Assembly (NCBI RefSeq): GCF_007748075.1
Contig: NZ_CP036280.1
Span: forward strand, 390,001-422,000
Direction: 5' to 3'
Origin: Mucisphaera calidilacus
GTDB taxonomy: Bacteria; Planctomycetota; Phycisphaerae; Phycisphaerales; Phycisphaeraceae
DNA length: 32,000 nucleotides
Each line of letters opens with the position of its first letter. Within the stretch, counting starts at the first letter, position 1. A program made the translations under genes and the position numbers. The notes under the pieces were generated by a model. It was not told the origin of the DNA, made no database searches, and was given only the letters and a program-made list of their open reading frames with translations. Shown piece by piece: positions 15,785-30,889 of this stretch.

Positions 15785-18700
15785 TCATTGGTGGCCAATC
15801 GGTCGGGGTGGTGAGGCGTTCAGGTCCCAAGCCTCAAGCGTAAATCCCCAGTCACCTCCGCCTTGACTGATCCGAGTGACAAGCTCATGGACGCCGGCTG
15901 CGAGATCAAGCGTGACCCTGTCCTCTCCGGGTGTGTACGCGCGTGGACGCTCGGCATCAACGACCTTCCGTCCGTCGAGCCAGACAACCATGCCGTCATC
16001 TGAGCCGCCGATCAACGCAACGCGTGTCGGCTCGCGAAGCGTCAAGCGCGTCCGGGCGTAGGCAATCCGGTCGCCGGATTCGGTCAGCCTCTTCAAATCA
16101 ATCCATGAGCCCTTGTCGCTCCCGGGCAGACGCTGCCACCGCTGCCCGCGGATGCTTTCTGGCAGTGATCGCCGGCCAACGATGGCCTGCTCGATCTCGC
16201 TGATGCCCCGGACTTCATTGATCGTCCCAATCGCGAACGGGCCGATGACCTCCCAATCGAGCCTTGGGGTGACCAGCGGCCGCGTTGAAGCAGCCACTCG
16301 ATCAGAGGCAAACGCTTGAGGGCGAGACAAAGCGTCACGGAGCCCGGTAGCGGGCCGACCATCCGTGGCGGTGATGCGTGCGACCAGTCCCCATCCCCCC
16401 TGGCCCTGCGCAACCTTGATGACGATACGGTTGACACCTTCCCTGAGTTGAACCGGGAGGATGTTCTGATCAGGCAGCGCGGGGCGGTCGAAACTCTCGG
16501 CGAACACGTTCTCGCCGTTCACCCAGACCGTAAGCGTGTCGTCACTGCCCAATCTCAGTTCAACAAGCCGCTCACGATCACTATGGACAAATGCCTGGGC
16601 ATAGGCTGCGGTGTTGTGCCGCTCGCCGAGCAGAGCCGAGAAGTCGAGACCGTTCGTCGCCGCGATGATGAGCGGGTCAACACGTTCCCAACGAACGGGT
16701 CCATCGGGCGTCGCGAACCGCGCGGATGCGGACGGCTCCCACTGTGGAGGATGTGTCGCTGCGAACGCCGCCGACTTGGACTCAGCCGGGAAGGGTCCCG
16801 CGATGATCCATTGAGGCGAACGAACCAGAACCGCTTCACCAGAGGTGTTCCAGCCACCGGGTCCCTCGACGCTCAGCGTCACCCTGCTGTCGCCGATGAC
16901 TCCACCCGCTTCATTGATCTCCATGCCCCAGGTGATCTCGCGGGACTCCCGGGCCTGCAGCCGCATACGCCTTCGTGGCTCTTGAACGCGAACTTCCGAA
17001 GGTGCTGCGATGGACAGCTCCAGAGCGAGCGGATCACCGGTCCTGTTCATGAGTGTCGCTCGGAGCTGGTGATCACCGCTCGTCACGACCTCGCCAACAG
17101 GATCGCGGATTTCGAGCGCGAGCATATCAGACCAGTTCACGCTCCCACGCAGAAGAACTGTCCCGTCGTAACTCAACACGTAGACCTGCCGCTGGCCCGA
17201 CAACGTGCCGGGGTGCGTAGGTGTCAGATCGGCGATCAGACGGTCGCCACTTTTCGATACCACGCCGTCGTGCACGACGTCCGGCTGGTTTTCGGCCCAC
17301 CATCGCAGGCTGAAACGTGACGGTTCGACGGAAGACTCAAACCCTATTACGACCGGGCGGCCGACCAGATTGCCGCTGGCCGGTGCGTCGAGATCACCAA
17401 GCTCTGGAACCGACCCCCACAGGGACGATGGGCTTACGTGCAGGTCTCGGATCGGGGCGTCGGCGTGCCATGTCCCAAACGGCTGTCCCCGGACGCTTCT
17501 GACCGTCAGCTTCGCACCCTGTCGCAGAAAGAGGGGCGGTTGATCGAGTGCCAGCGGGACGTTGAAGGTGCCCGGGCCGGTGAACACCAACGGTTGTTGT
17601 GCGTGCAGCCACTGACCCGGCGGGAAGGTAACAGCTCGCTGCGTGGCGCCCTGCTCCATGACGGGGGCGACGAGCAGGTCTGGCCCCAGCATGTACTGTG
17701 TCGCCAGCCTGGCGTCCGGGTGAGGTGTTCCAGCAAAAAACATCGGGCGCATGATGGGCATGCCTGTTTCTGCAGCCTCCGCGCCCAGTTCAAGGAGTGT
17801 TGGCATCAGACACAGTCGCAGGTGGGCCAGCCGACGATACGCATCGACAGCTTCAGGTCCGAAGTGCCAGGGTTCCCGAGGGTCGATGCCATGGAACTGC
17901 ATGAAGGGGCTGAGTGCTCCGAGTTGCAACCAGCGGATGTAGAGTTCAGGCGTCGCCGTCCCATAGTAACCGCCGATGTCGTGTCCCCAATAGGGCATGC
18001 CGGATAATGAGGATGACAAACCCGCGGTAATAAGCCTGCACAGCTGCGACCACTCGGCTCCCTGATCCCCCGCCCACAAGCCCGGAGCCTTCTCGATGCC
18101 GAGGCTCCCGCTGCGAGACCACAGCATGCCGTCGACTCCTTCCTCGCGAAGCACGTCGTAGGTGGCACGGTTATACGCGGTGGAATACGCGTTATGCGCC
18201 TGCCAGCCGGGTGTGTCCTCGTGCCCGAGTCGGTCATCCGGCTTGATCGCCTCGCCGTCATCCGCCTTGAAACCCGAAATACCCATGCGCACGACCGGCC
18301 GCAGCATTTCTTTCCAGAGGTCAACGCCCTCCGGCTTGAGGAAATCAACGTTCCCGAAGCCCGCGAGCCACTCCTCGCGCAGACTCACCCCACCGCCAGG
18401 ATCGCGCACCAGCAGGCCCTGCTCGGCGGCTTTCGTGAACCATGGCGAAGAGGGATGGAGTATCGGCACCTGCCAGAGCACCACACGAACACCCTCCCGC
18501 GCACAACGATCCAGGAAGCCCTTCGGATCTGGCCATCGCTCCTGAGAGAATCGGTTGAACGACCCGCTCTCGCTGCGGCCCTTCCATGCCTCGAGAACAA
18601 TCACGCCGAAGGGAAGATCACGCTCACGCATGCCGTCCATGGCCGCCTCGGCCTCGTCCTGAGTCTCATAACTGTTCTTGCTGATCCACGGTTGATAGGC

Positions 18701-19411
18701 CCAATCCGGAGCCGGCTCCAGGCCGCCGATCATCCGTGTACGGTCGGCGATCAGTTGCGGGATCGTCTCGGCAAAGCCGACCACGAAGGATGCCGATGTG
18801 CCCGCTCGGCAGTAGCGGTTCCATCCATCGCCCAGACGGTTCAGATCAAAATGCCCCTCAGGGTTGTCGTCTGCAAGGAAGCTGTAGCCCCCAGAGGCGT
18901 AAACGACCGGCGAGACGTAGTAGCTGTCGGAACCCTCGCCGCCCTGGCCCGGTGCATCGACGATCCACATCTCGACCCTGTGTCCGGCTAGATTGAGGCT
19001 GTCGAAACGCTCGCCAAAACCGTACAGCGCTTCGTCGCGACCGGCCTGCCAGGCGATTTCAAGCCCGGGCACGGAGGCACGCCCGTACGACCCGAGTTTG
19101 CTGAACCTGACCCTCCAAGCGGGTGCGCCCTCAGACCGGAGTGTCAGTAACTGATCACGGGGATCGAAACTGGCAGCAATCCCCGGCGAGACCTGCCGGC
19201 TGATGCGCGTTGCGGATGGCTGGGTGATCTCGGCACCCTCCTCCAGATGAATACGGATCATGTTGCTGAGCTCATCATCCACCGTGCTGATACGGATGGT
19301 GATCCCGTCTCGCGTCACAGCAAAGTGCTGGGCATCGTCTTGGGCATTGACCACAACAGGGCTGATAAAGGCGTAAATAACTATCATGAATATACTTATA
19401 GTTAGTTTCAT
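15785..19411 (-). CDS. Glycoside hydrolase family 31 (alpha-glucosidase/alpha-xylosidase-type) with signal peptide and a C-terminal extension of about 550 aa
   Basis: N-terminal signal MKLTISIFMIVIYAFISPVVVNAQ. GH31 boxes: LYGFGERFDSLNLAGHRVEMW, GISGFKADDGE (nucleophile box, 18251-18274), LWAGDQ (acid/base box, WAGDQ = 18062-18076) and YWGHDIGGY (17966-17989). Convergent with the giant gene and divergent from the LacI gene. Confidence 0.85.
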   Translation of the reverse strand: MKLTISIFMIVIYAFISPVVVNAQDDAQHFAVTRDGITIRISTVDDELSNMIRIHLEEGAEITQPSATRISRQVSPGIAASFDPRDQLLTLRSEGAPAWRVRFSKLGSYGRASVPGLEIAWQAGRDEALYGFGERFDSLNLAGHRVEMWIVDAPGQGGEGSDSYYVSPVVYASGGYSFLADDNPEGHFDLNRLGDGWNRYCRAGTSASFVVGFAETIPQLIADRTRMIGGLEPAPDWAYQPWISKNSYETQDEAEAAMDGMRERDLPFGVIVLEAWKGRSESGSFNRFSQERWPDPKGFLDRCAREGVRVVLWQVPILHPSSPWFTKAAEQGLLVRDPGGGVSLREEWLAGFGNVDFLKPEGVDLWKEMLRPVVRMGISGFKADDGEAIKPDDRLGHEDTPGWQAHNAYSTAYNRATYDVLREEGVDGMLWSRSGSLGIEKAPGLWAGDQGAEWSQLCRLITAGLSSSLSGMPYWGHDIGGYYGTATPELYIRWLQLGALSPFMQFHGIDPREPWHFGPEAVDAYRRLAHLRLCLMPTLLELGAEAAETGMPIMRPMFFAGTPHPDARLATQYMLGPDLLVAPVMEQGATQRAVTFPPGQWLHAQQPLVFTGPGTFNVPLALDQPPLFLRQGAKLTVRSVRGQPFGTWHADAPIRDLHVSPSSLWGSVPELGDLDAPASGNLVGRPVVIGFESSVEPSRFSLRWWAENQPDVVHDGVVSKSGDRLIADLTPTHPGTLSGQRQVYVLSYDGTVLLRGSVNWSDMLALEIRDPVGEVVTSGDHQLRATLMNRTGDPLALELSIAAPSEVRVQEPRRRMRLQARESREITWGMEINEAGGVIGDSRVTLSVEGPGGWNTSGEAVLVRSPQWIIAGPFPAESKSAAFAATHPPQWEPSASARFATPDGPVRWERVDPLIIAATNGLDFSALLGERHNTAAYAQAFVHSDRERLVELRLGSDDTLTVWVNGENVFAESFDRPALPDQNILPVQLREGVNRIVIKVAQGQGGWGLVARITATDGRPATGLRDALSRPQAFASDRVAASTRPLVTPRLDWEVIGPFAIGTINEVRGISEIEQAIVGRRSLPESIRGQRWQRLPGSDKGSWIDLKRLTESGDRIAYARTRLTLREPTRVALIGGSDDGMVVWLDGRKVVDAERPRAYTPGEDRVTLDLAAGVHELVTRISQGGGDWGFTLEAWDLNASPPRPIGHQ
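15788..16810 (-). repeat. Two tandem beta-sandwich (jelly-roll/galactose-binding-like or PA14-like) modules at the GH31 C-terminus
   Basis: Module 1 (about 16372-16810): WIIAGPF...VRWERV...AAYAQAFVHSDRERLVELRLGSDDTLTVWVNGENVF...LREGVNRIVIKVAQGQGGWGLVARI. Module 2 (about 15788-16255): WEVIGPF...QRWQRL...IAYARTRLTLREPTRVALIGGSDDGMVVWLDGRKVV...LAAGVHELVTRISQGGGDWGFTLEA. Fold family not resolved. Confidence 0.5.
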
Positions 19412-19483
19412 GGCATGGTTGTCCGGTTTAGGCGTCGCTCAGAGTACCAATGGGTCAGAAAAAACGGTTTCGAGTCACTTGAC

Positions 19484-19530
19484 TAAATGCATTTATCATA
19501 TAGGCTAGAGAAGATAAGTAAAAGCATTTA
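19484..19530. promoter_or_regulatory. Candidate operator pair in the GH31/LacI divergent promoter region
   Basis: Perfect 12-bp palindrome TAAATGCATTTA (19484-19495) and a one-mismatch copy TAAAAGCATTTA (19519-19530), 35 bp centre to centre. A third GCATTT sits at 19540-19545. The first site abuts a TTGACT hexamer (19479-19484). The region is 35-42% G+C by hand count. Confidence 0.4.
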
Positions 19531-19582
19531 GTTGCCTCGGCATTTGTTTTCTTACTACATCTCAATCACTCAGGCTCGCAGC

Positions 19583-20665
19583 GTGACACAAGCAACCCGT
19601 ACAACAGGAAAAGGCGAAAAGCCGGTCACCACGCTGTCCGCTCTGGCTCGTCACGTCGGCGTTTCACCAACGACCGTCTCTTTCGTGCTCAACGGCAAGG
19701 CCGCTGAGCGGAAAATCTCTGTCGAGACGGTTCAGCGTGTCCTCGCCGCCGCGAAAGACGTCAACTACACCCCCAATGCACTCGCACGCGGTCTCCGCCA
19801 GAAGAAGACGCACGCCATCGGCGTCGTGTTCCCGCACCTCCGCAACGACTGGGCCCACCTGATCATGCGCGGCGTCGTGGAGGAACTCGGAGCTTCGGAG
19901 ACCGTCCCCATGATTGTCTGTCATCACGGCGACGCCGAACTCGAAGCGCGACTGCTCCGTTCGCTGGTCGAGCGACGCGTCGACGGCATCATCTGCAATC
20001 CGCTACGCAACGGCATGGACCGGTACCGCGACGTTGTCCGCCGTGGGGTTCCGTTGATCTTCCTCGGCGACGCCCCCAAGGGACTCGACGAGATTCCCTG
20101 CTCGGCGTGGGATCCCGCTGCCGTGCACCTGGCCGTGGAACACCTGCTGGCGTTGGGGCATCGACGCATCGTCTATCTCGGGAGCCGTGATAATCGCGTG
20201 ATCTCTGAGGCCCGGCGGCATGTCTTCTGGGACAGCCTCAGGCAAGCCGGATTGTCGCCTTCCCGTCGCGACATCATCCTGAGCAGCACGTCCGAGGACG
20301 TGGGCGATGGACCGCTGGAGTTGCTCCGCGGTGAGAACCCACCCACGGCGTTCTTCGTCGAGTACGACGATCAGGCTGTCAGCCTGTACCAGCTCCTCGA
20401 TGACGCCGGCGTAGCGTGTCCCCGTAACGTCTCGATCGCCACCATGGGTGGTTCGCCTCGGAGTGTGTCCGCGGGTTGCTGTCTGACGACCGTCTCAGCC
20501 CCGGTGGTCGATGAGGGACGCGCGTGCGCACAACGACTCATGAGCATGATCGATGAACCCGAGCACAAGCCCGAACGGGCGTATGTGCACGGCGGATCGC
20601 TTCTCGTCGGACAGACCACGGGGCCTGTCGCGAACTCGAAACCCGGATCCCGAGGGACACCATGA
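19583..20665 (+). CDS. LacI/GalR-family transcriptional regulator
   Basis: [26 protein letters not shown]...[38 protein letters not shown] followed by a periplasmic-binding-protein-like sugar-binding core. Start uncertain: GTG 19583 is preferred. The TTG 19532 in the ORF track would add an AT-rich extension that overlaps the candidate operator. Confidence 0.85.
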
Positions 20666-21462
20666 AACGCACGAACGGATTCACCCTCATCGAACTTCTT
20701 GTGGTGATCTCGATCATCGCGCTGCTGATCGGTATCCTGCTGCCCGCACTAAGCGCCGCAAGGAACACGGCACGATCGGCGGCATGCCTCTCGAACCAAC
20801 GCCAGTTGGGCATCGCACTGGTGAGTTACACGATCGACCACGACGGCTACTTCCCGCCGGTGCGCGACTGGGCACTGCTGTTCGGTGGCGTCGGTGAAAC
20901 CTCGCGTTTTCAGGACGGCGCCCAGACGGGGACGCCGATCGATGCAGCGAGCGCCCCCCGACCGCTGCTCGACGCCGGCTACCTCGGCGACAGCAAAGGC
21001 TCCGAGTGCCCCGCTGACATCGGTGATCCCGAGTTCGACGGCACGACGGATCCCGTCGAGAACACCTTCGAGGCCTACGGCAGCAGCTACCGGGCGATCA
21101 TCGAAGTGGACATCCGCCAGCGGGTCCTGCCCGGGCGTGATCCCGTAGCGCTCTACGGCGTGGACTACATCGGTTGGCGTCCGACGGGCTACGGCGGAGC
21201 CTACAACGACGTGGCCCCCAGGCGGATGGACGATTACGACCGAAATCTCAGCGTCAAGATCGTCGCTGGAGACTGGAACTGGCTGCCCGATGAGGTCTGG
21301 GCAGACACCCCCAAAGCCAGGTGGCACGGCTCGGGCGAGCGGGCTAACAACATGATGTACGCCGACGGACACGCCGCTTACTACCGGTTTACGGCTGAGT
21401 ATGAACAACGCTTTGCCACCAATGTGTTCGCCCCCGCTGATCCCAATTTGGGTTACTGGTAA
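20662..21462 (+). CDS. Prepilin-type N-terminal cleavage/methylation domain protein (pseudopilin-like, HX9DG/DUF1559-like)
   Basis: [53 protein letters not shown] is the classic GFTLIE prepilin leader plus hydrophobic helix. C-terminal [21 protein letters not shown] is an H-X12-DG variant. Its ATG overlaps the LacI stop (ATGA at 20662-20665). Confidence 0.85.
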
Positions 21463-21515
21463 TACTGACCTGATCACATTTGTGTGCTTTACTTTGCTGG
21501 ATGGAGAATATCGAC

Positions 21516-23483
21516 ATGTCCAATCAAGGCCTGACCTTCACGACGCTCATGCTGGTTGCCGCCGCTCTCGGCGGGCAGACCCATACACACGCCGCCACCA
21601 TCGGCAGCGACGACGCCGGCCGGGCGAGCTATGTCGCCAGCGGCTGGTTCGATGGCCAGAACGACGGCGTCGGCTTCGGCCCCTGGAAACTCCTCTCGGA
21701 CGCCACCGGCGGCGGATTCGCAGGCTTCTACAGCGCCGACAATCTCGGGGGAGTCGACAACATCGGCGTCGAACAGACCCCGCCGCTGCCCTATGCCAAC
21801 CCCGCCGCCGAGGGACGCGTCTGGGCCAGCTACGCCAACAAGGGCGACGGCATCGACCGCGCCACGGCCTTCCGATCGCTCGATGAATCGCTGGACGGCC
21901 TCGGCGACAGCTTCTCGGTCAGCTACGAACACGGGTTCGTCAACGGTGCCGCAGGCGTTGCCCTCAGGACCGCCAATATCAGTGACCTCGCTGAGGATTA
22001 CGACGCCGGAGCAAGGGCACAGTTCCAGTTCAGCGGTGGCAACGGCGTCTACGCTCTGATCGACGACGCGGGAACAGTGGAACTCGACGGCTCCGCCGGC
22101 CTGCCGTTTGTCCCCTTCACCTTCTTCGGCGTGGACCTGACTTACACCATGACCGGTCCCGACACCTACGATCTTCAGATCACCAAGTACAACGCCGAGG
22201 CAGGGTCAGGCGGCTCGGCACCCGATGTCTTCAACAAGACCACGCACCCGGCGCTGGGCGGGCGCAGCCTCGCGGGGACCGGTACGATCGACTCGGTCGC
22301 GCTCTATCAGGAAGACGTGGAGAAGCAGAGCGACGGCTTCTTCAACAATCTCAACTACACTACCTCCACCGGTAACGGTGCCGACAACGCCGCCAACTAC
22401 TTCGGCCTCTGGTTCGAGGGCGACAACTTCGGCAACGGATTCGGGCCGTGGGTGTTCACCTCCGAAACCGACGGCGGCTTTGCGGGCAATTTCATCCAGG
22501 CAGGGGCCGGCAACGGCGTCGATAACGCCGGAACGCCTGCCCCCGACGGATCTGTCTGGGCCAGCTACGCCAATCAGGGCAACTTCGCCGACAAGGCCGT
22601 GCAGTACCGAAACCTGAACCATCTACTTGGCGAGCCGAACGACACCTTCTCCGTCTCCTTGGAGAACGGGTACGTCGATCCCGGCGGCCGCGTGGGCATC
22701 TCGCTGCTGGACGGATCGGTCCAGCCCGACGTGACGCCTGATGACTACGCCAGCAACGCTCTTTTCCAGTTCTTCTTCGAGGGCGGCAACGAGACTTACA
22801 CCCTGATCGATGCCAGCGGCGAGATCGACACAGGCGTCAATTTCTCGTTCTGGGGCGTCGACCTCGATCTTGTCATGACCGGCATCGGAACCTTCGACCT
22901 GACCATCACGCGCTACGGCGAACCCAACGACGCCGAGCCCGAGATCACTACGCTCAGCGACCTGACCCTCGCGACGACGCCCGGCACCGGCATGATCGGC
23001 TCTCTGGCTTTCGTGAATGTGGACGCACCCAATCAGAGCGACGTCTTCTGGAATCATCTCACCTACGCCACCGACCAAGGCGGCGGCCTCGAGGGTGATT
23101 TCAACAATGACGGAATCGTCGATGACATGGACATCGATCTTCTGCGCGAGAACCTCGGCGACCCGGCGTTCGACCTCGACGGCAATGGCGTCGCCGACGC
23201 TGACGACATGATCTACATCGTCGAAACAATCATCGGTTCCCGTCTGGGCGACGCTAATCTCGATCGGACGGTCGATCTGCTGGACCTCTCGGCGTTGGCG
23301 TCGAATTTCAACAGCGCCGCCGGTTGGGCGGGCGGCAACTTCAACACCGACGCCGCGGTTGACCTGCTGGATCTCTCAATTCTTGCGGCCTCGTTCGGTC
23401 AGTCAGCGACCGTTCCCGAACCGGGTGCCGCCGTTCTGTTAACGCTCGGGCTGGCAGGTGTGGCCCGGAGGAAACACGGATAA
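21516..23483 (+). CDS. PEP-CTERM surface protein: signal peptide, two copies of an unrecognised ~230-255-aa module, dockerin-like repeats, PEP-CTERM anchor
   Basis: GGAGAA lies 7 nt upstream of ATG 21516. Signal MSNQGLTFTTLMLVAAALGGQTHTHA. Module copies at about 21603-22363 and 22378-23070. Dockerin-like GDFNNDGIVDDMDIDLL ... GDANLDRTVDLLDLSALASNFN ... GNFNTDAAVDLLDLSILAASFG. VPEP (23412-23423) plus hydrophobic helix plus RRKHG. The ORF-track start 21480 is probably too early. Confidence 0.85.
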   Translation: MSNQGLTFTTLMLVAAALGGQTHTHAATIGSDDAGRASYVASGWFDGQNDGVGFGPWKLLSDATGGGFAGFYSADNLGGVDNIGVEQTPPLPYANPAAEGRVWASYANKGDGIDRATAFRSLDESLDGLGDSFSVSYEHGFVNGAAGVALRTANISDLAEDYDAGARAQFQFSGGNGVYALIDDAGTVELDGSAGLPFVPFTFFGVDLTYTMTGPDTYDLQITKYNAEAGSGGSAPDVFNKTTHPALGGRSLAGTGTIDSVALYQEDVEKQSDGFFNNLNYTTSTGNGADNAANYFGLWFEGDNFGNGFGPWVFTSETDGGFAGNFIQAGAGNGVDNAGTPAPDGSVWASYANQGNFADKAVQYRNLNHLLGEPNDTFSVSLENGYVDPGGRVGISLLDGSVQPDVTPDDYASNALFQFFFEGGNETYTLIDASGEIDTGVNFSFWGVDLDLVMTGIGTFDLTITRYGEPNDAEPEITTLSDLTLATTPGTGMIGSLAFVNVDAPNQSDVFWNHLTYATDQGGGLEGDFNNDGIVDDMDIDLLRENLGDPAFDLDGNGVADADDMIYIVETIIGSRLGDANLDRTVDLLDLSALASNFNSAAGWAGGNFNTDAAVDLLDLSILAASFGQSATVPEPGAAVLLTLGLAGVARRKHG

Positions 23484-23565
23484 TCAGGCCCCTACGCCTG
23501 CCGGATAACCCGATTCGCGACTGGCTTCTATTCACCCTTTCCTGATCACTGGAGGAGAAAGCATC

Positions 23566-24345
23566 ATGAATCACACGCAACTCACCATCACGCTCCTGAC
23601 AGCCCTGGGCATCGGCACCGCCTGCGCCTCTGCAGCGGATGTCGGCTTCGACGACGCGAGCGCCGCGGCGTACAGCGACGGCTGGGACAACTTCGACGAC
23701 GGTAACACCGGCGGCGGCCCCGGCATGGGCGGCTGGGTCTTCGGCGGCAACGCGGTCAGCGGCACGACGGTCGACATCGCCAGTTCTGCCGGCTTGGGCG
23801 GCGGTGTCGCCGCGATCGATACGGACGGCAAGGCGTTCAAGATCCATGACACCTCGGGTGGCTTCGTCGACGTCTTCCGCTTCTTCGATCCTGAGGGTCT
23901 CGACGCGGGCCAGGTCTTTACCATGGAGATGGCCGTGAACTTCCGTGGCGGCTTCAAGGGCATGGACCTCCGTGGCACCGACACCAGCACCATCTTCAAT
24001 CTCAACGTGGGTGGTGACGATTACACCGTCGGTCAGGCCACGACCGGCAGCGGCAGCCTCGGCAACGCCTACAGCAACGATACCCGTTTCACCCTCGAAT
24101 TCGTACAGACGACACTGGCAGGCGGCGAATGGACCGTGACGCGATCCGGCGGCATCGACGACGTCGATACCGGCACCTATACGGGCCGAGCCGGCAGCAT
24201 CAAGCTCTACAGCGGCAGCCAGGGAAGCTTCGGCGAGGACGCCATCTACTACAACAACTTCTCGGTCACACCGATCCCCGCGCCCGGCGCCGCAGCCTGC
24301 GGCCTGCTCGGACTCGGCGGGCTGGCCCTCAGACGTAACCGCTGA
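23566..24345 (+). CDS. Small PEP-CTERM surface protein carrying one divergent copy of the same module
   Basis: GGAGGAG (23551-23557) precedes the ATG. Signal MNHTQLTITLLTALGIGTACASA. Module at about 23635-24270 (AAYSDGWDNFDDGNTGGGPGMGGW ... IYYNNFSVT). IPAP (24274-24285) plus GAAACGLLGLGGLAL plus RRNR. Confidence 0.85.
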   Translation: MNHTQLTITLLTALGIGTACASAADVGFDDASAAAYSDGWDNFDDGNTGGGPGMGGWVFGGNAVSGTTVDIASSAGLGGGVAAIDTDGKAFKIHDTSGGFVDVFRFFDPEGLDAGQVFTMEMAVNFRGGFKGMDLRGTDTSTIFNLNVGGDDYTVGQATTGSGSLGNAYSNDTRFTLEFVQTTLAGGEWTVTRSGGIDDVDTGTYTGRAGSIKLYSGSQGSFGEDAIYYNNFSVTPIPAPGAAACGLLGLGGLALRRNR

Positions 24346-24357
24346 GCCTCCTCCTGA

Positions 24358-24392
24358 CCGGAGCGGGTGCTGACGCGCCCACTCCGGTTTTT
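24358..24392 (+). terminator. Rho-independent terminator-like hairpin between the small module gene and the GH66 gene
   Basis: CCGGAGCGGGTG (24358-24369), 6-nt loop, CGCCCACTCCGG (24376-24387). This gives 10 Watson-Crick pairs, one G-U pair and one C/A mismatch, followed by TTTTT (24388-24392), 13 nt after the TGA stop. Confidence 0.55.
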
Positions 24393-24424
24393 AGCTGTGG
24401 CCGAGTCATCGTGAGGTCGTCCGG

Positions 24425-27349
24425 ATGAAACCAAGCGTGTGCAGACTGCCGGTCATTATCGTCACGGCCCTGTTCTGTGGTCACGCAGATGCTGCGATGA
24501 CACTCGAAGGCAGCGCGGCACGGTACGACCCCGGCGACCCGATCAACCTCCGGCTCGACACACCCGCCCAGGTGACCAACGCGACCGCTGAGGTTACCTA
24601 CCGATATCTTGGCGACGTTGTGGCCACGCAGCAGTTCGAAGTCAACGGATCCGAGGCCACATGGCAGTGGCTTGCACCGGACGATGATTTTCGCGGCTAC
24701 ACCGCGGAGGTTCGCCTCTACGAACAGCAGACGCTGATCGATAGCGGCTCCATCGCCATCGACGTCTCGTCCGACTGGGCGAAATTCCCTCGCTACGGCT
24801 TTCTCTCGGACTACAGCTTCCTATCAGCCAGCCAAATGGACGCTGTGATCGATGACCTCAATCGCCATCACATCAACGGCCTGCAGTTCTACGACTGGCA
24901 CAGCACGCATCACCGCCCGCTGGAGGGCAGCGTCCAGAATCCCGCCTTCAGCTGGCGCGATATCGCCAACCGACGCAACTACCGGACCACTGTCGAAGGC
25001 TACATCGAACGCGCCCGGGACCGAAACATGGTCACGATGGCCTACAACCTTCTCTACGGCGTCAACGAGGCCGCGGGTGCTGCTCAGGATGGCGTCTCCC
25101 CCGACTGGTTTCTTTACCGAGACAGTCAGCAGGGCAGCAAGGACATCCACACCCTCCCCGCGGGATGGAAGAGCGATGTCAGCCTCGTCGACCCTTACAA
25201 CGCCGGTTGGCGCGAGCACATCGCTCAGGAAACAGCCAGAGCCGCAGAGGCTTATGGCTTCGACGGTTGGCACGTCGATCAACTCGGAGATCGTGGTCAG
25301 GTCTACGCCGCCAACGGCCGACCCGTTGATCTCGAACCCGCCACGGGGGCTTTTGTTTCGGCCATGGCATCGCACCCGGATCTTGTCGGCCAGCGTTTCG
25401 TCGCCAACGCCGTTAACCAGTACGGCCAGGCCGCGCTCGCCATCGCACCGGTTGACTTCCTCTACACCGAGGTCTGGAACCCGAACGAGCACTACAACGA
25501 TCTTGCCGGCGTCCTCATGGACAACCACGAGCTCTCGGGCGGGCAACTCAACTCCGTGCTCGCGGCTTACATGAACTACGACCATGCCGATCAGCCGGGT
25601 GCCTTCAACACCCCCGCCGTGCTCATGACCGATGCCGTCATCTTCGCCTTCGGCGGGGCCCACATCGAACTGGGCGAGCACATGCTCGGCAAGGAGTACT
25701 TTCCCAACAACACCCTCGCCCAGGACGCCACCCTCCGCCAGGCAACCCGCGCTTACTACGACTTTCTGGTCGGCTATCAGAACCTGCTCCGCAACGGAGG
25801 AACGTTCCACACCCACAGGCTGACGTCGCCGACCCATCCGATGTCCGATTGGCCGGCACAGCAGGGGCGTGTCGCGGCCCTCAGCAAGACCGTCGGAGAA
25901 CACGAAGTCTTCCACCTGATCAACTTTCTGGACGCGGCGCACATGAACTGGCGCGACACCAACGCGACCCAGCCCCAGCCGCTGCGACGTGATGACATCG
26001 TGCTCGAGACACACACGCAACGCCGTCTCAACAAGGCCTGGTTCGCGACACCCGATGATTCCAACGGGCTGCCGAGCGACGTTGCCTTTCTTCAGTCGCC
26101 CAACGGTTTCGTGCGTTTCACCGTCCCGTCGCTTGAGATCTGGACGATGGTCGTCGCCGAGGGTGATGCGCCTCGTGGGCACGACCAGGCGAACGATCCC
26201 GCTTACGACCACGGCTGGACCGACGGGTCAGACGGCGGACACGGTTTCGGCCCGTGGTCCCTGCGGGCCACATCGACGGCCGGGGGGTTCGCCGGTTTCT
26301 TCCGCCCGGATGACGCCCAGGACTCACGCGGCCTCGACAACACGGGCTCGGATCATGCCTCGACCGGCGTGACACTCGCCAGCTTCGCCAACAAGGGATC
26401 GGGGATCGAGCAGGCCACGGCCCTACGCACCCTCGACGAAACACTCGACAGCGCAGGCGACACGTTTCGGGTCACCTTTGAGCACGGGACGATCACCGGA
26501 CAGGTAGGTTTCACGCTCCGCGAAGTGAGCACGGCAGAGGTGCCCTCCGACTACGCCATCGGATCACGCTTCCAGCTGCTGGCGCTGGCAGGCAGCGCGA
26601 ATTACCAGATCCTCGACGCGGACGGAATCTTTGACACCGGTGTGCCCCTGACGGACCTGGGCATCACCGCCCAGGTGCGGCTGATCGACCTTCACACCTA
26701 CGACCTCACTCTCTGGCGGTACGAAACACCCCGCGACTTCGACCCCGTGGCCCACACCTTCACGGGCCGCAGCCTCGCCCTGAGCGACCCGATCGTTGGC
26801 TTCGCACTGTTTCAGCACGATGCTGCCGGCGGACTGATCCAGGACGATGTCTTCTGGAATCACATCAGCTACACGCTTGGCGAAGCATCCCCCAACGACC
26901 TCAACGCCGACGGTGTCGTCGACCTCGATGATCTCGATTACCTCGTCGGCCATCAATTCGATTACAACGGTGATGGCTACGACGCGAGCGACGTCAGCGA
27001 TTTCGCCTCCGAGGTGCTCGGTCTACGCATCGGTGATGTCAACGCCGACGGCAACATCGACTTGCTCGATCTGTCCCTGCTCGCCAGTCATTTTGACCTG
27101 CCCGGGACCCTCTGGTCACAGGGCAACCTCAACGGTGACGCTGCTGGAACCGATCTGCTCGATCTGTCCCTGCTCGCCAGCAACTTCGGCTCCTCGGCAA
27201 TCCTGCCCGAACCGACATCCGTCCTGGCAATGGGACTCGTCATCTTGGCACGATCACGACGATCTCGCGCATCAGCATCAAATCCAGGCGAAAAACGCAT
27301 CATCCCAGACGGCCAACGACACGCTCGGTCTTCCTGTTTTCACAACTAA
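24425..27349 (+). CDS. GH66-like endo-dextranase/cycloisomaltooligosaccharide glucanotransferase-family enzyme fused to the unrecognised module, dockerin-like repeats and a PEP-CTERM anchor
   Basis: Signal MKPSVCRLPVIIVTALFCGHADA, then an Ig-like N-domain. GH66-type boxes from memory: DVSSDWAKFPRYGFLSDY (FPRYGF = 24785-24802), HINGLQFYDWH (24881-24898), GFDGWHVDQLG (candidate nucleophile D285, 25277-25279) and FLYTEVWNP (candidate acid/base E349, 25469-25471). Module at about 26178-26875. Dockerin-like repeats at 26889-27197. ILPEP (27200-27214) plus helix plus RSRRSR. Confidence 0.7.
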   Translation: MKPSVCRLPVIIVTALFCGHADAAMTLEGSAARYDPGDPINLRLDTPAQVTNATAEVTYRYLGDVVATQQFEVNGSEATWQWLAPDDDFRGYTAEVRLYEQQTLIDSGSIAIDVSSDWAKFPRYGFLSDYSFLSASQMDAVIDDLNRHHINGLQFYDWHSTHHRPLEGSVQNPAFSWRDIANRRNYRTTVEGYIERARDRNMVTMAYNLLYGVNEAAGAAQDGVSPDWFLYRDSQQGSKDIHTLPAGWKSDVSLVDPYNAGWREHIAQETARAAEAYGFDGWHVDQLGDRGQVYAANGRPVDLEPATGAFVSAMASHPDLVGQRFVANAVNQYGQAALAIAPVDFLYTEVWNPNEHYNDLAGVLMDNHELSGGQLNSVLAAYMNYDHADQPGAFNTPAVLMTDAVIFAFGGAHIELGEHMLGKEYFPNNTLAQDATLRQATRAYYDFLVGYQNLLRNGGTFHTHRLTSPTHPMSDWPAQQGRVAALSKTVGEHEVFHLINFLDAAHMNWRDTNATQPQPLRRDDIVLETHTQRRLNKAWFATPDDSNGLPSDVAFLQSPNGFVRFTVPSLEIWTMVVAEGDAPRGHDQANDPAYDHGWTDGSDGGHGFGPWSLRATSTAGGFAGFFRPDDAQDSRGLDNTGSDHASTGVTLASFANKGSGIEQATALRTLDETLDSAGDTFRVTFEHGTITGQVGFTLREVSTAEVPSDYAIGSRFQLLALAGSANYQILDADGIFDTGVPLTDLGITAQVRLIDLHTYDLTLWRYETPRDFDPVAHTFTGRSLALSDPIVGFALFQHDAAGGLIQDDVFWNHISYTLGEASPNDLNADGVVDLDDLDYLVGHQFDYNGDGYDASDVSDFASEVLGLRIGDVNADGNIDLLDLSLLASHFDLPGTLWSQGNLNGDAAGTDLLDLSLLASNFGSSAILPEPTSVLAMGLVILARSRRSRASASNPGEKRIIPDGQRHARSSCFHN

Positions 27350-27425
27350 TGATCCGATCAGCGGGAGATGACCGGTCCGGCCGCCGGATCGTCACCAGAT
27401 CATTGACGTCGCACCTAACTCTTGC

Positions 27426-27439
27426 TACTTTATAAAGTA
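27426..27439. promoter_or_regulatory. Perfect 14-bp palindrome TACTTTATAAAGTA in an AT-rich island upstream of the propeller-like gene
   Basis: Read directly from the sequence. TTGACG (27403-27408) lies exactly 17 nt upstream of the palindrome start. AGGAGGA (27470-27476) precedes ATG 27483. The region 27411-27470 is about 35% G+C by hand count. Confidence 0.35.
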
Positions 27440-27482
27440 AGTTCTAACGCTAATTTAACCCATCTTGACAGGAGGAAGAAGT

Positions 27483-28523
27483 ATGCGATCTCTAGCCCTT
27501 TGTTGCGCGGTGGCCGGTCTGTCGTCTGCGGCGCTCGCAGCCGATTACGTGGAAGTCGCCAGCCATGAGGATCTCTTTGGTGCGGGCTCAACCATGTTCA
27601 CACGCTCGGTCGTTACCGATGGCGCGTCCACGCTCTACGTCTTCGGCGCGGATAACAACCCGCTGGGCTTCGAGGTGATCAAGTACGACACCACGACCAG
27701 CACCGCGACCAAACTCGCCGACCTTACCAGCTTCGTCAGCGATATCCCGAGCTTCTCCCCGGACGACCCCTTCCCAGGCTATGGCTTCGGCTACGTCGCC
27801 GCGACGAACGAGCTGCAGCTGATCGACGGCGCTTCCAGCGCCATCTATCGCTTCGACGCCAGCACGGGTGACGCCTATGAGTATCTCTCGAACGCGGCCA
27901 TTGCCGCGCACACGGGACTCGCCAGCGCCGACCTCGTGAACTACTCCGGCACCACGGTCGACGGCGAAGCGGTCTTCTTTGAAGACGATTCCAAGAGCAT
28001 CCTCATCAGCTCATCGGCGGGCAGTGTCTCGACGCTGGTCTCGGCCACGGAACTCGTCGATGCCACCGGCGGCAACGACGTCCGTACCGGACTCACCTCC
28101 GACGGCCAGGGCAACTACTACTGGGGACAGAACAGCACCGACGTCATCTACAAGTATGACGGCAACACCGTCTCGCCCTTCATCGCCATCGGCGCTGTCG
28201 GCGGAGACAGCTTCTCAGGTGACATGTTCTACGCACCCGACGGTCTCATCTACGTCCGCATGCGTACCGGCGGCGCGAACGCCCTCTGGTCTTTTGACCC
28301 CGCGGCTGTCGATCCCACCGCGAGTCTGACCCAGATCCTCTCGGGCAGCCAGCTCGCGGACGGACCTCTCGGAAGCAACTTCATCAGCGAGATCAGCTGG
28401 TTTGAGGGGCAGCCCGGCTTCCACCGTATCTCCACCAGCCTCGGCTACTACGCCGTCCCCGCCCCGAGCACCTTCGCCCTGGCAGCGATTCTCGGGATGG
28501 CCGGCCTCACCCGCCGTCGCTGA
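27483..28523 (+). CDS. PEP-CTERM surface protein, beta-propeller-like repeats, unknown family (paralogue of 29359-30708)
   Basis: AGGAGGA lies 6 nt before the ATG. Signal MRSLALCCAVAGLSSAALA. Repeated strands: ELQLIDGASSAIYRFDASTGD, GEAVFFEDDSKSILISS, GNYYWGQNSTDVIYKYDGN and DGLIYVRMRTGGANALWSFDP. VPAP (28455-28466) plus helix plus RRR. Confidence 0.8.
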   Translation: MRSLALCCAVAGLSSAALAADYVEVASHEDLFGAGSTMFTRSVVTDGASTLYVFGADNNPLGFEVIKYDTTTSTATKLADLTSFVSDIPSFSPDDPFPGYGFGYVAATNELQLIDGASSAIYRFDASTGDAYEYLSNAAIAAHTGLASADLVNYSGTTVDGEAVFFEDDSKSILISSSAGSVSTLVSATELVDATGGNDVRTGLTSDGQGNYYWGQNSTDVIYKYDGNTVSPFIAIGAVGGDSFSGDMFYAPDGLIYVRMRTGGANALWSFDPAAVDPTASLTQILSGSQLADGPLGSNFISEISWFEGQPGFHRISTSLGYYAVPAPSTFALAAILGMAGLTRRR

Positions 28524-28554
28524 TCCCTCCGGACCATTAGCTTGACCGCCAATC

Positions 28555-28589
28555 AAAAACCGTCCCGCTTCGTGCGGGGCGGTTTTTTT
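28555..28589. terminator. Bidirectional rho-independent terminator shared by convergent genes
   Basis: AAAAA, then ACCGTCCCGC (28559-28568), loop TTCGT, GCGGGGCGGT (28574-28583), then a T-run (7 T in total, 28583-28589, the first being the last stem base). The 10-bp stem has one G-U pair. It lies between the stops at 28523 (+) and 28612 (-). Confidence 0.85.
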
Positions 28590-28611
28590 GCTGTTCGCAA
28601 AAGAGGTCTGC

Positions 28612-29325
28612 TCAGTTGTCTTCCATCACCCGGAAGCCCGTGGAGAGGTCAAGGTAGATCTCGTTGACGCCCATGCCCGAACGCCCGTCGCTCTGGTCGC
28701 TGCGACGGGTAGCGCCGCGGTGATAGAGCGTCTGCGGGCGGAAGAAATTGCGATTATCCGGCGTGCCGCTGTAGGGGCCGCCGGCGCCTGAGGTCGGGGA
28801 GAAGTAGACGTTGCTCGGCGCGGGCCTGAGATTCCAGTTGTCCGCGATCCAGAAACCGGAATTGTCGTCGTCAGCGAGGTAATTGCTCTGATCCTGCGTG
28901 AAAGGGTCGGAGGCATTGACGATGTAGGTGTTGCCGTGGTCGTTGTCGACGATGTCGTAGGTGTTCAGCAGGCAGATGTACACCGCGCTGTCGGCGGCGA
29001 TCAGGTCAAGATCATCGAAGAGCGCCTGCAGGCCGAAGGTCTCCGGCCCGTTGCTCGGTGTGACCGGGGTGCTCTCACGCCCGGGAGCGACGCGAAAGTT
29101 CGCTCCGCCCAGTGACTCTCTCGACGGCATGGTGTAATTCGGGCTGTCGTTCTGATACACGCCGCCGGCGATGCCGATCTGACGAAGGTTGTTCATGCAC
29201 TGAACGTGCTTGGCACTCCTGCGGGCGCTGCCCAGCGCGGGCAGCAGGATGGCGATCAGTAACGCGATGATGGAGATCACCACAAGCAATTCGATCAGCG
29301 TAAAACCTTGTCGTGGATGTTGCAC
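28612..29325 (-). CDS. Prepilin-type N-terminal cleavage/methylation domain protein (pseudopilin-like), second copy
   Basis: GTG start with GGAG 5 nt upstream. [54 protein letters not shown]-terminal [15 protein letters not shown] is an H-X10-DG variant. It begins 33 nt downstream of the preceding gene on the same strand. Confidence 0.85.
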
Positions 29326-29358
29326 CGAAACTCCGTGGTCTGGTCTGAGTGCGCGTAA

Positions 29359-30708
29359 TCAGCCTGAACGCCGGACCGTCAAGACGGCAAGACCGATCAT
29401 ACCCGTGATCAGTGTACCGGGTGCCGGCACCGAATCACCCGAGCTGAAGTTGGCGGCCAGGATCGACAGGTCCAGCAGGTCGACGAGGCCGTCGCCATTG
29501 AAGTCACCCTCCGACGTGGCGTAGGGCGTGTCACTCCCGTCGAAGTTCGAGGCCAGGATCGACAGGTCCAGCAGGTCAACCACGCCGTCCTCGTTCGCGT
29601 CACCCGGCAGGACATCGGGGACGTCGAGTGTAATCCCGTAGATACCATCGTTGGCCACGAAGCTCGTCCATGTCAGCTTCGCCCCGTACACGCTGAAGTC
29701 GTTGATGTTCTCGCTGCTCATGCCGCCCGCCAGCAACTGACTGGTGTCCAGCACGCGTTCGAGCGTCTCGATCGGGTCGTCGGGGTCGAAACGCAGCAGG
29801 GCGTCGTTGCCCCGCTCGTAGAGGTAAAGCAGGCCATCCGCACCCAGGATCAGGTCATTGAAAGCGGCGTAATCAGCCCCGAAAAACGGGTCCGAACGCG
29901 ACACCGGCACGATCTCCTCCTGCGGGAGGGCTTGGCTGAGCGTCCCGTCGCTGGCACGCTGGTAGATGCTGCCTCGCGCGTTGTTGCTCGACGTGAACGA
30001 GCTGCCGCTCAGCGTCCAGAAGAAGTTGTCGTTGTCATCGAATGCGAGCCCGCCACTCACGTAGCTGCTCAGCGAGGCGTCGCCCACGATGCCCTGCAAC
30101 TCCGCCTTGGTCAGGAAGACCGACAACGCGCCCTCGGTGGTGACCTTGATCACCTGGTCAGAACGATCCTCGTAGAGGTACATGTTGCCCGCGGCATCAA
30201 ACGTGGATTCGCCACGGACCTGCAACTCCGTCAGCCCCGTCAGGGCCAGGATGTCCGTCGCCGTGATGAGTGTCGAGAGGTCACCGGTCGTGGTGTCGGC
30301 ACGGTAGATAGCGTCGGTCGACTGGTCGAGAAACTGCAGGCTGCTGCCTAGAACCCGCGAGCGGCTCCCGGGCAGGATCGAGCTGTTCCCGGTGTAGGCC
30401 AGCCAGTCTGCCGCAGAGACAAGCGTCGTCTTGACCGGGCTGTCGTCGAGGCTCTCGAGCTTCGTAATCTGCATGTCGAACGTCGGCGTGATACCGCTCT
30501 CGACGTCACGCAGGATGAAGTAGCCGCTGTCGCCGGCGAAGGTGTGTGTCGACGCGTAATTGAAGTTCGAGGCCGTGCGGATACTGCCGATACTCCAAAG
30601 CGTGTCGTAGTTGGCCTCGGCCGACTGCGACGGCAGCAGGCACGCCAACGCGAGCAGCAGTGATCCGAGTGTCAGGCGGTTGCGGTGTGTGTGGGTGAGC
30701 ATCATCAT
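29359..30708 (-). CDS. PEP-CTERM surface protein, propeller-like repeats plus dockerin-like pair (paralogue of 27483-28523)
   Basis: GGGAGG (30709-30714) is followed by three consecutive ATGs (30708, 30705, 30702), so the exact start is uncertain. Signal MMMLTHTHRNRLTLGSLLLALACLLPSQSAEA. SLQFLDQSTDAIYRADTTTGD, GNMYLYEDRSDQVIKVTTEG and DGLLYLYERGNDALLRFDPDDP align with the + strand paralogue. GDANEDGVVDLLDLSILASNF...GDFNGDGLVDLLDLSILAANF (29434-29604). SVPAP plus helix plus RRSG (29362-29433). Confidence 0.8.
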   Translation of the reverse strand: MMMLTHTHRNRLTLGSLLLALACLLPSQSAEANYDTLWSIGSIRTASNFNYASTHTFAGDSGYFILRDVESGITPTFDMQITKLESLDDSPVKTTLVSAADWLAYTGNSSILPGSRSRVLGSSLQFLDQSTDAIYRADTTTGDLSTLITATDILALTGLTELQVRGESTFDAAGNMYLYEDRSDQVIKVTTEGALSVFLTKAELQGIVGDASLSSYVSGGLAFDDNDNFFWTLSGSSFTSSNNARGSIYQRASDGTLSQALPQEEIVPVSRSDPFFGADYAAFNDLILGADGLLYLYERGNDALLRFDPDDPIETLERVLDTSQLLAGGMSSENINDFSVYGAKLTWTSFVANDGIYGITLDVPDVLPGDANEDGVVDLLDLSILASNFDGSDTPYATSEGDFNGDGLVDLLDLSILAANFSSGDSVPAPGTLITGMIGLAVLTVRRSG

Positions 30709-30889
30709 CCTCCCAGCAAAATAAAAGTAATTCCAAGCCTCTCTGACCGGCTCGAAACAGGCCATGCCTCCGTACCTGACAAGCTATCAGTATGCGGTGT
30801 ACGCGGCCGTCATGTCGACAGAATTATGACATGATAATTGCATCTTAATAGCACAATATTAAACAATGATCGATGTTCCGTCAATGTCA

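Follow-up and report, generated by a model that had tools for sequence, protein, structure and literature searches.

How planctomycetes, and bacteria of the wider PVC (Planctomycetota, Verrucomicrobiota, Chlamydiota) group, acquire polysaccharides without SusC/SusD pairs has been a question since 2017, when uptake of dextran and its binding to fibres were demonstrated. In planctomycetes other than the one considered here, gold-labelled dextran was seen on pili-like fibres, and uptake was energy-dependent, being abolished by carbonyl cyanide m-chlorophenylhydrazone (CCCP) (PMC5394234). A 2025 review lists the players in planctomycete uptake as unknown (PMC12673574), and a 2024 survey counts no planctomycete cluster of carbohydrate-active enzymes as functionally characterised (PMC11131199). 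Here we ask what is encoded by a locus of Mucisphaera calidilacus Pan265, a marine planctomycete (Phycisphaerae) that comes from a biofilm at a shallow hydrothermal site (PMC8882080), in which genes for two glycoside hydrolases (GH66 and GH31) lie beside a gene for a type IV pilin-like protein, pp1. The locus lies in a stretch of 32 kb, called the window throughout, which has a GC content of 62.6% and is occupied over its whole length by eleven large open reading frames (ORFs). The products of modA, pp1 and prop2 agree at 100% identity with NCBI proteins of M. calidilacus; for GH66 an exact match was not found, probably because its annotated start differs from the one used here. By sequence comparison, positions 15785-27349 are a conserved unit, cassette 1, with GH31 diverging from LacI-pp1-modA-modB-GH66. 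On balance we think it probable, at rather better than even, that cassette 1 is a LacI-repressed utilisation locus for dextran (alpha-1,6-glucan) with anchored surface proteins and pp1 as a co-induced filament subunit. Dextran utilisation by anchored surface proteins is the part that the sequences support well; a role of pp1 in uptake is proposed by analogy. The features of the cassette are as follows.

15785..19411, minus strand: GH31 alpha-glycosidase (Pfam GH31), 1208 aa; N-terminus resembling a signal peptide, no anchor at the C-terminus

19412..19582, not stranded: divergent control region, 171 bp, 43% GC, with a TTGACT box and palindromes O1 and O2

19532..20665, plus strand: LacI-family regulator; the ORF runs from TTG 19532, and the likely start is GTG 19583

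20662..21462, plus strand: pp1, type IV pilin/pseudopilin-like protein, 266 aa, with an N_methyl match

21480..23483, plus strand: modA, likely start ATG 21516, giving 655 aa, with a signal peptide, two modules, Ca loops and a PEP-CTERM end

23566..24345, plus strand: modB, 259 aa, with a signal peptide, one divergent module and a PEP-CTERM-type end

24425..27349, plus strand: putative GH66 endo-dextranase, 974 aa (Pfam PF13199), with a module, dockerin-type loops and a PEP-CTERM end

The likely substrate is indicated by GH66. The protein matches Pfam PF13199 over profile positions 4-546 of 546 (E 1.3e-174, 582 bits against a cut-off of 23.7), and its closest solved structure is FjGH66 of Flavobacterium johnsoniae (8iu8, 7.4e-155). 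Its motifs lie at residues 121 (FPRYGF), 153 (LQFYDW), 278 (GFDGWHVDQLG) and 347 (YTEVW), and D285 and E349 align with Asp293 and Glu355 in the HIDQLG and YTEVW motifs of FjGH66, which are the catalytic residues of that enzyme (PMC10316084). The pair is 64 residues apart in the window protein and 62 in FjGH66 because of a 2-residue insertion. We set aside a cycloisomaltooligosaccharide glucanotransferase (CITase) as the first-choice identity. CITases with a CBM35 insert (Bacillus, Paenibacillus) align to GH66 in two stretches, and dextranase-type chains align end to end; since the CITase alignments break into two pieces, an ordinary endo-dextranase is the better reading of the sequence. The NCBIfam equivalog model of endo-dextranase BT3087 (NF052487) scores 628.5 bits, under its cut-off of 730, and marks a family-level relative only. 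The catalytic part (about residues 25-580) is followed by a lectin-fold module (about 584-817), dockerin-type loops, a PEP-CTERM region (927-946) and a 28-residue tail.

GH31 carries the barrel domain PF01055 (1.3e-68), and the N- and C-terminal GH31 Pfam domains are also matched. The motifs KADDGE, WAGDQ and WGHDIGGY lie at residues 382, 446 and 475, and D384 and D449 align with the Asp residues of KTDFGE and WGGD in Escherichia coli YicI. Similarity extends to YicI at 1e-65 and to FjDex31A at 3.5e-53; the substrate specificity is not readable from the sequence, and we presume a periplasmic, exo-acting enzyme. The C-terminal approximately 570 residues (about 640-1208; window 15785-17500) have no family match beyond a faint one to PA14 (E 0.022). 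Two stretches of this half resemble each other (…WIIAGPFP… and …WEVIGPFA…); the half is kept in two of the relatives described below (L001 and L008) and is shorter in a third (L010).

An earlier reading of this DNA from its letters alone (hereafter the sequence-only reading) had picked out both enzymes, the GH66-like one by a candidate catalytic pair 64 residues apart and GH31 by its three boxes, and had called the whole an alpha-glucan (dextran-type) locus. The Pfam matches and the alignment with FjGH66 bear out both assignments, and the combination of GH66, GH31 and LacI, with its catalytic residues and conserved gene order, agrees with the dextran-type label.

Relatives of the locus were gathered by a scan of one genome per species, together with contigs encoding modA homologues, which yielded eight GH66 loci including that of the window. 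In a metagenome-assembled genome of Mucisphaera sp. (L001) the order GH31 <-|-> LacI-pp-modA-modB-GH66 is the same as in the window, with identities of 57, 74, 74, 70, 76 and 60%, and L008 and L010 keep the same six-gene order at 44-67% identity. Across these LacI-type (type A) loci the GH66 orthologues are 51-60% identical, the GH31 orthologues of L001, L008 and L010 50-57%, and the LacI orthologues 55-74%. A second order (type B; L006, L007 and L011) reads modB-modA-(GH97)-DUF1559 pseudopilin-small ORF-ECF sigma-FecR anti-sigma-GH66(-GH97), ECF standing for extracytoplasmic function. In the single locus of type C (L009) we found a sensor kinase, a response regulator, a GDSL hydrolase with a modB-type domain, a module protein, a pilin-type gene and two GH66 genes. 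The core of GH66, a modA-type and a modB-type module and one pseudopilin is present in 8/8 loci, under LacI, ECF sigma/anti-sigma or two-component control, and the partner enzyme is a GH31 or a GH97.

This conservation bears on the plainest alternative, namely that pilin-type and PEP-CTERM genes are too numerous for their proximity to GH66 to matter, a view that the sequence-only reading would have conceded had no relative kept the neighbourhood. DUF1559-type proteins are indeed among the largest planctomycete families (PMC4807772, PMC2754498), and the window alone holds two pilin-type genes. However, a pilin-type gene lies inside the cassette in every one of the eight loci that combine GH66 with the module, through three gene orders and three types of regulator; within a type the pilins are orthologous, at 49-74% or 71-72% identity; and the reading frames of LacI and pp1 overlap. 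Chance adjacency is already contradicted by synteny, with the gene order kept in three relatives, and we find it scarcely credible. On its pattern of conservation, pp1 is an integral, selected member of the dextran cassette.

The sequence-only reading had joined nine genes into one locus, from GH31 through a convergent operon. We rejected this grouping: prop1, pp2 and prop2 travel separately, as a second conserved unit, cassette 2 (27465-30765).

27465..28523, plus strand: prop1, a PEP-CTERM protein of 352 aa

28555..28587, not stranded: bidirectional terminator-like hairpin with a 14-bp perfect stem and A and T runs on either side

28612..29325, minus strand: pp2, second pilin-type protein, 237 aa, with an N_methyl match

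29359..30765, minus strand: prop2, 447 aa in its annotated form, with a dockerin pair and a PEP-CTERM-type end

In two other genomes (L014, L015) prop2-pp2 and a convergent prop1 occur with no GH66 or glycosidase nearby, beside a VWA/TPR protein of about 2740 aa; identities are 54% for prop2, 65-69% for pp2, the most conserved, and 41-45% for prop1. The last ORF of the window, in the same neighbourhood (27465-31891), matches the C-terminus of that VWA/TPR protein. The three genes are absent from all other GH66 loci, including that of the Mucisphaera sp. genome, and prop1 belongs to cassette 2 though it is co-directional with GH66 in the window. The paralogy of prop1 and prop2 that had been proposed is confirmed (29% identity, E 3e-16). 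The prop2 family comprises 10 proteins, and at E up to 10 Pfam has no match for the last ORF or for the bodies of prop1 and prop2, the two that the sequence-only reading called propeller-like.

How cassette 1 may be controlled can be read from the region between GH31 and LacI. The regulator has a helix-turn-helix domain (PF00356, 7.4e-12) and the effector domains PF00532 (Peripla_BP_1) and PF13377 (Peripla_BP_3) (1.1e-24). If LacI starts at GTG 19583, the divergent spacer measures 171 bp, with a GC content of 43% against 62.6% in the window; with that start the 171-bp AT-rich region of the sequence-only reading holds. An inverted-repeat search returned a palindrome, O1 (ACTAAATGCATTTA, 19482-19495), overlapped by a TTGACT box at 19479-19484, and a second copy, O2 (TAAAAGCATTTAGT, 19519-19532); the two copies in the spacer read TAAATGCATTTA and TAAAAGCATTTA. 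The motif TAAA[AT]GC[AT]TTTA occurs twice in the window, against 0.01 copies expected by chance. Upstream of LacI in L001, L008 and L010, TTGACTAAA[TC]GC[AT]TTTA stands in the same place, and the palindrome overlapping TTGACT is kept in 4/4 LacI-type loci. A promoter-like site on the opposite strand, directed at GH31, overlaps both palindromes. The palindrome is operator-like in its sequence and position, and we regard it as a candidate LacI operator at divergent promoters.

Downstream, the LacI stop and the pp1 start overlap as ATGA. We found no terminator-like site between LacI and GH66, nor between GH66 and prop1, and the hairpin at 28555-28587, between the convergent prop1 and pp2, is the sole strong terminator-like site in 19300-31000. 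The palindrome pair, the ATGA overlap and the terminator-free stretch fit an autoregulated LacI-pp1-modA-modB-GH66 operon with a co-regulated divergent GH31.

The type B loci show a different arrangement of control genes. In each (L006 12128-15842, L007 11920-15556, L011 14109-17794) the pseudopilin gene is followed directly by a small ORF of 102-163 aa, then by an ECF sigma gene and one for a FecR-like anti-sigma factor; the small ORF has no family, and neither has the large periplasmic part of the anti-sigma factor. FecR-type anti-sigma factors of Bacteroidota receive their signal from a TonB-dependent transducer, and no such transducer is present in the type B loci. Upstream of the dextran genes of L007 (1-7310) lie genes for a PEP-CTERM protein, a DUF1559 pseudopilin, a GH99, a 240-aa PEP-CTERM protein, a GDSL hydrolase with a PEP-CTERM end and a symporter of the major facilitator superfamily (MFS) type. 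This second cassette of the same style suggests that pilin, PEP-CTERM proteins and glycosidase form a general design in such genomes.

Where the proteins of cassette 1 would act is suggested by their ends. Five proteins, modA, modB, GH66, prop1 and prop2, carry [VIL]P[EA]P, a hydrophobic stretch and RR at the C-terminus, so that the motif behind the earlier count of five PEP-CTERM-type anchors among nine proteins is found in all five. Orthologues carry a canonical VPEP; M. calidilacus often has PAP at this place instead of PEP, and modB of the window has IPAP where its orthologues have PEP. In the seven loci under LacI or ECF sigma control, GH66, modA and modB have PEP-CTERM ends, with the GH66 of L011 as the single exception, and the GH31 and GH97 proteins of the examined loci never do. 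The GH66 of M. calidilacus continues for 28 residues past the basic cluster (C-terminus of GH66, 27203-27349); its orthologues end within a few residues of that cluster, except in L011, where the C-terminus has diverged. PEP-CTERM ends are absent from the proteins of L009, which share another C-terminal pattern (...YFRLVKP, ...FYRILLGP) that is perhaps a different sorting signal.

An indirect hint of an exosortase elsewhere in the genome is that M. calidilacus has an N-acyl amino acid synthase cluster (PMC8882080), a gene type reportedly linked to exosortase systems, to judge by a title cited in PMC12078418. Paired Ca-binding loops of dockerin type are found by motif in modA, GH66 and prop2. 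The earlier reading had placed such pairs in three of the five anchored proteins, and this stands at the level of motif; Pfam Dockerin_1 is significant only in prop2 among the three (4.8e-8), and also in the giant protein encoded at the left of the window (3.5e-6).

Anchored enzymes could also serve a purpose other than nutrition, the remodelling of an alpha-glucan in the matrix of the strain itself, which forms a viscous colloid as it grows, or the freeing of cells from it. All three displayed proteins have PEP-CTERM ends, and the PEP-CTERM sorting system is associated with exopolysaccharide-producing bacteria. The cells are moreover embedded in an extracellular matrix (PMC8882080). Against this, a sugar-responsive LacI, the exo-acting GH31 or GH97 and the adjacent sugar-transporter-type gene of L007 make up a catabolic signature, and no glycosyltransferase or glucansucrase was found within or beside the eight loci. 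We consider matrix remodelling very unlikely, and dextran utilisation remains our reading of the displayed proteins.

These displayed proteins share a domain of about 235 residues, present twice in modA, once in GH66 and once, in divergent form, in modB, which makes four copies per locus. It has no sequence similarity to any Pfam family. A model built with AlphaFold2 (AF2) from an alignment of 24 copies is an all-beta sandwich (pLDDT 86, pTM 0.87), and the alignment shows conserved Trp, Tyr, Asp and Asn columns. The best fold matches in the PDB are L-type lectins (ERGIC-53, VIP36, Emp46p), calreticulin, CBM11, Cip1 and the lectin-like domains of sialidases. The body of modB matches nothing in Pfam at E up to 10 and is recognised by the module profile (hhalign probability 94%, E 8.7e-8, 202 columns). 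The family has few members: 16 came out of 5.8 billion proteins in a word-indexed search, and a metagenome scan with the module profile gave only two contigs, both short and distant. We sought the module also in the periplasmic part of the type B anti-sigma factors and in the C-terminal half of GH31, with no match at E 0.01.

A 1407-aa metagenome protein (L012 66-4289) combines GH31, DUF5110 and Calx-beta with the module (about residues 1083-1282), and the module is therefore not limited to GH66 proteins. In L009 (5030-6466) a GDSL/SGNH hydrolase has a modB-type domain as its N-terminal half (1.5e-49). By its model, the module is predicted to be an uncharacterised domain with a ConA/L-type-lectin fold, and is a candidate for a new family of carbohydrate-binding modules (CBMs). 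Given the tandem copies, the fusion to two alpha-glucan-active families, the conserved aromatic and acidic columns and the lectin fold, we infer that binding of glucan would be its most economical function.

The remaining member of the operon is pp1. Both pp1 and pp2 match N_methyl (PF07963) above the Pfam cut-off of 21.2 (7.3e-8 and 8e-9; 32.1 and 35.1 bits) and have the class III signal G|FTLIELL, in the sequence MKRTNG|FTLIELL, with Glu at +5, in agreement with their earlier description as pseudopilin-like. The AF2 model of pp1 (pLDDT 83, pTM 0.83) has an alpha-1 helix at 9-59, about 50 residues long, at pLDDT >95, and a compact, DUF1559-like head of about 200 residues, mostly at >80. When the head was searched exhaustively against 1.84 billion representatives, 225 relatives emerged; only two are close, at E<1e-30, and the others are short prepilin-type proteins of 30-40% identity. 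A word-indexed search returned only pp1 itself and one orthologue. In 40 of the relatives conservation reaches at least 90% in the cleavage region and at Glu+5, and C42, D119, H222, D235 and H237 are invariant. Conservation of the pilin within a locus type equals or exceeds that of the enzymes: pp1 orthologues are 49-74% identical, against 51-60% for GH66. Since the prepilin cleavage site and Glu+5 are kept, pp1 is most likely, as its sequence suggests, built into a type IV filament (a pilus or pseudopilus) whose machinery is encoded elsewhere.

A different use of the same protein would be as a solute-binding or sensing protein of the periplasm, fixed to the inner membrane by its N-terminal helix, which would bind isomalto-oligosaccharides and pass them to a transporter or signalling protein encoded elsewhere. 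Pfam files DUF1559 as SBP_bac_10, and the papers on the family speak of solute-binding proteins (PMC2754498, PMC4807772), a label for which we found no experimental basis. The type of pilin tracks the regulator and exo-enzyme (LacI with GH31, ECF/FecR with GH97, two-component) and not the surface proteins, and the sigma/anti-sigma pair of type B loci has the pilin gene a short way upstream. However, the parts of pp1 that known systems use for filament assembly, its cleavage motif and Glu+5, are at least 90% conserved; its model has no periplasmic-binding-protein fold and no match in the PDB; and it meets the DUF1559 profile PF07596 only over the first 35 residues of the head, at profile positions 2-35 and 22.8 bits, under the cut-off of 23.3 (pp2 scores 18.5 bits). 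Because the filament signals are conserved, a tethered role is less likely than roles in a filament, and we hold it to be unlikely.

Assembly into a filament leads to a mechanism in which, with inducer absent, LacI would occupy the two palindromes overlapping the divergent promoters, and would be released on sensing a product. Induction would lead to export of the three PEP-CTERM proteins, which carry Sec signals and would presumably be processed by an exosortase encoded elsewhere. ModA, with two modules, and modB, with one divergent copy, would act as surface glucan binders in a role like that of the SusE/F-type proteins of Bacteroidota, and the anchored GH66, with its own module attached, would cleave dextran at the cell surface. 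GH31, which has a signal peptide and no anchor, would trim isomalto-oligosaccharides in the periplasm. The co-translated pp1 would join a type IV filament built by machinery from elsewhere in the genome. A type IV filament machine can accept alternative subunits, and there are precedents for a retractile filament that pulls polymer through the outer membrane; minor pilins bind DNA in competence, and pilin genes are induced by a polysaccharide in the case of Vibrio and chitin. We tentatively suggest, at well short of even probability, that pp1 captures glucan or its fragments and passes them across the outer membrane, because dextran-gold binds pili-like fibres in other planctomycetes and uptake there is sensitive to CCCP.

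Several points weigh against this picture. The functions of all cassette proteins are read from sequences and models. The Pfam PEP-CTERM scores of the window proteins, 19.1 and 16.8 bits, are under the cut-off of 20.7. The fold matches of the module reach E 5e-6 at TM-scores of just 0.35-0.49, and the ConA-like fold also houses enzymes. For pp1, the fold search against the PDB gave no match (best E 0.58) and no solved pilin resembles the head; with no structural relative, a binding site cannot be inferred. The pilins of types A (256-266 aa, 49-74% identical), B (326-338 aa, canonical DUF1559 of PF07596, 71-72% identical) and C (274 aa) are not orthologous, only their N-terminal approximately 60 residues aligning, while types A and B share orthologous modA, modB and GH66, which argues against a dextran-specific pilin head. 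With GH66 anchored at the surface and polymer cut outside, there is less need for polymer import. Transporter-type genes also lie near the cassette in some relatives: L007 has an MFS-type symporter gene immediately upstream of the cassette, and L008 and L011 have an ABC (ATP-binding cassette) permease or MFS gene beyond one large unrelated gene. Finally, M. calidilacus lacks crateriform structures (PMC8882080), the sites at which the fibres of the published dextran work were attached.

Among the proteins encoded in the window, which the listed genes fill, Pfam revealed no transporter, exosortase, cohesin, ATPase or secretin. The sequence-only reading had been right to report the absence of SusC/SusD and of ABC, MFS and phosphotransferase-system transporters, as well as of exosortase, cohesin and the ATPase and secretin of type II secretion systems (T2SS) and type IV pili. 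Given the transporter genes near the relatives, a transporter-free window says little.

The non-orthology of the pilins is easier to accommodate if pp1 works outward, with a generic job: as a subunit of a T2SS-like pseudopilus, it would push GH66, modA and modB across the outer membrane or hold them on a fibre, with no role in import. The N-terminus of pp1 matches best the major pseudopilin GspG, under the cut-off. In the sampled loci that use PEP-CTERM, each pilin-type gene is at most two genes from a PEP-CTERM protein, including in the glycosidase-free cassette 2 and in the GH99 cassette of L007; that is a descriptive count from a biased sample. The pilin-type gene is nevertheless retained in L009, whose proteins have no PEP-CTERM ends, and we know of no precedent for pseudopilins encoded in the operon of their cargo. 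A generic job would also leave unexplained why genomes retain so many divergent paralogues, from tens to hundreds each (R. baltica has 74; PMC2754498). We regard outward transport or display of PEP-CTERM cargo as possible, and almost as likely as inward capture by pp1.

Cassette 1 is of a known kind, a substrate-specific dextran utilisation locus, in a new architecture: free of SusC/D, with PEP-CTERM anchors, a lectin-fold module and a constant pilin gene. The sequence-only reading had proposed a functional analogue of a polysaccharide utilisation locus; a conserved, SusC/D-free alpha-1,6-glucan locus survives from it, and the nine genes as one system do not. Its further proposal, that pseudopilin-like proteins replace or assist a Sus-like uptake step, stands as a hypothesis. 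With the dextran loci of Bacteroidota (FjDexUL, PMC10316084; the B. thetaiotaomicron dextran utilisome, PMC13450635) it shares a surface GH66 endo-dextranase, GH31 and/or GH97 with a signal peptide and no surface anchor, dedicated glucan-binding surface proteins, a dedicated regulator and a division of labour between surface and periplasm. It differs in that all eight planctomycete-type loci, that is the window and the seven related loci, lack a SusC/SusD pair. Lipoprotein signals there are PEP-CTERM ends here, SusE/F-type domains are replaced by an unrelated lectin-fold module and SusR by LacI, an ECF sigma factor or a two-component system, and a pilin-type gene is a constant member.

Comparison with the other systems that the cassette recalls gives a similar mixture. 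Like the subunits of type IV filaments, including the competence minor pilin ComP and the chitin-regulated pilus of Vibrio (reviewed in PMC4471445, PMC10191384), pp1 has a class III signal, Glu+5 and a long alpha-1 helix; unlike them, its head has no solved relative, the machinery genes are not nearby, and the pilin is encoded inside a catabolic operon. The DUF1559 or H-X9-DG family (PF07596) is massively paralogous, confined to PVC bacteria and of unknown function (PMC2754498, PMC4807772). Pp1 and pp2 resemble it in the prepilin N-terminus and in a head ending in His...Asp-Gly-His, and type B loci hold canonical members, but pp1 and pp2 are short (237-266 aa) and belong to small orthologous groups tied to particular cassettes. 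The C-termini follow PEP-CTERM/exosortase sorting in their [VIL]PEP, hydrophobic helix, basic cluster and Sec signal peptides, yet the cargo here is a glycoside hydrolase and the lectin-like binders of a catabolic locus. As in ConA-like lectins and CBMs, the module is a predicted curved beta-sandwich appended to hydrolases and arranged in tandem; it differs in having no Pfam similarity, low TM-scores and a very small family. The paired EF-hand-like Ca loops recall cellulosome dockerins, but the window has no cohesin, and the loops precede a PEP-CTERM anchor and do not end the protein. Our search of the literature on DUF1559, pseudopilins, prepilins and PEP-CTERM proteins of PVC bacteria in connection with polysaccharide use, whose coverage is incomplete, found no description of this arrangement.

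To the left of cassette 1 the window is taken up by a giant ORF (104-15631, plus strand; 5175 aa) with four FG-GAP repeats, five PKD domains and a dockerin pair. Its first 2500 residues have no Pfam match, and it lacks a PEP-CTERM end. GC skew is -0.16 to -0.22 across exactly this ORF and near zero in the rest of the window. The species description names just one gene of more than 5000 aa, at 13,493 aa (PMC8882080), and ORF 104-15631 may therefore be a second giant gene, or a gene whose annotated start differs.

For the question of SusC/D-free polysaccharide acquisition, the cassette provides a small, conserved, regulator-defined set of candidates, for the same substrate and in a cultured strain (Pan265, DSM 100697). 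It offers an enzyme of predictable activity, a module that possibly founds a CBM family, a directly testable operator and a constant pilin-type protein, and it gives a first functional context to the DUF1559-class family, among the largest unexplained gene families of planctomycete genomes. A wider idea, which we put forward as rather doubtful, is that DUF1559-class pilins provide each polysaccharide cassette with one subunit of its own, to be loaded onto a common type IV filament machine that carries glycan through the outer membrane. If this is true, pilin-type subunits in PVC bacteria would take the place of the SusC/D pairs of Bacteroidota, and the dextran cassette would be the first defined example, for the very substrate whose fibre binding and energy-dependent uptake were seen.

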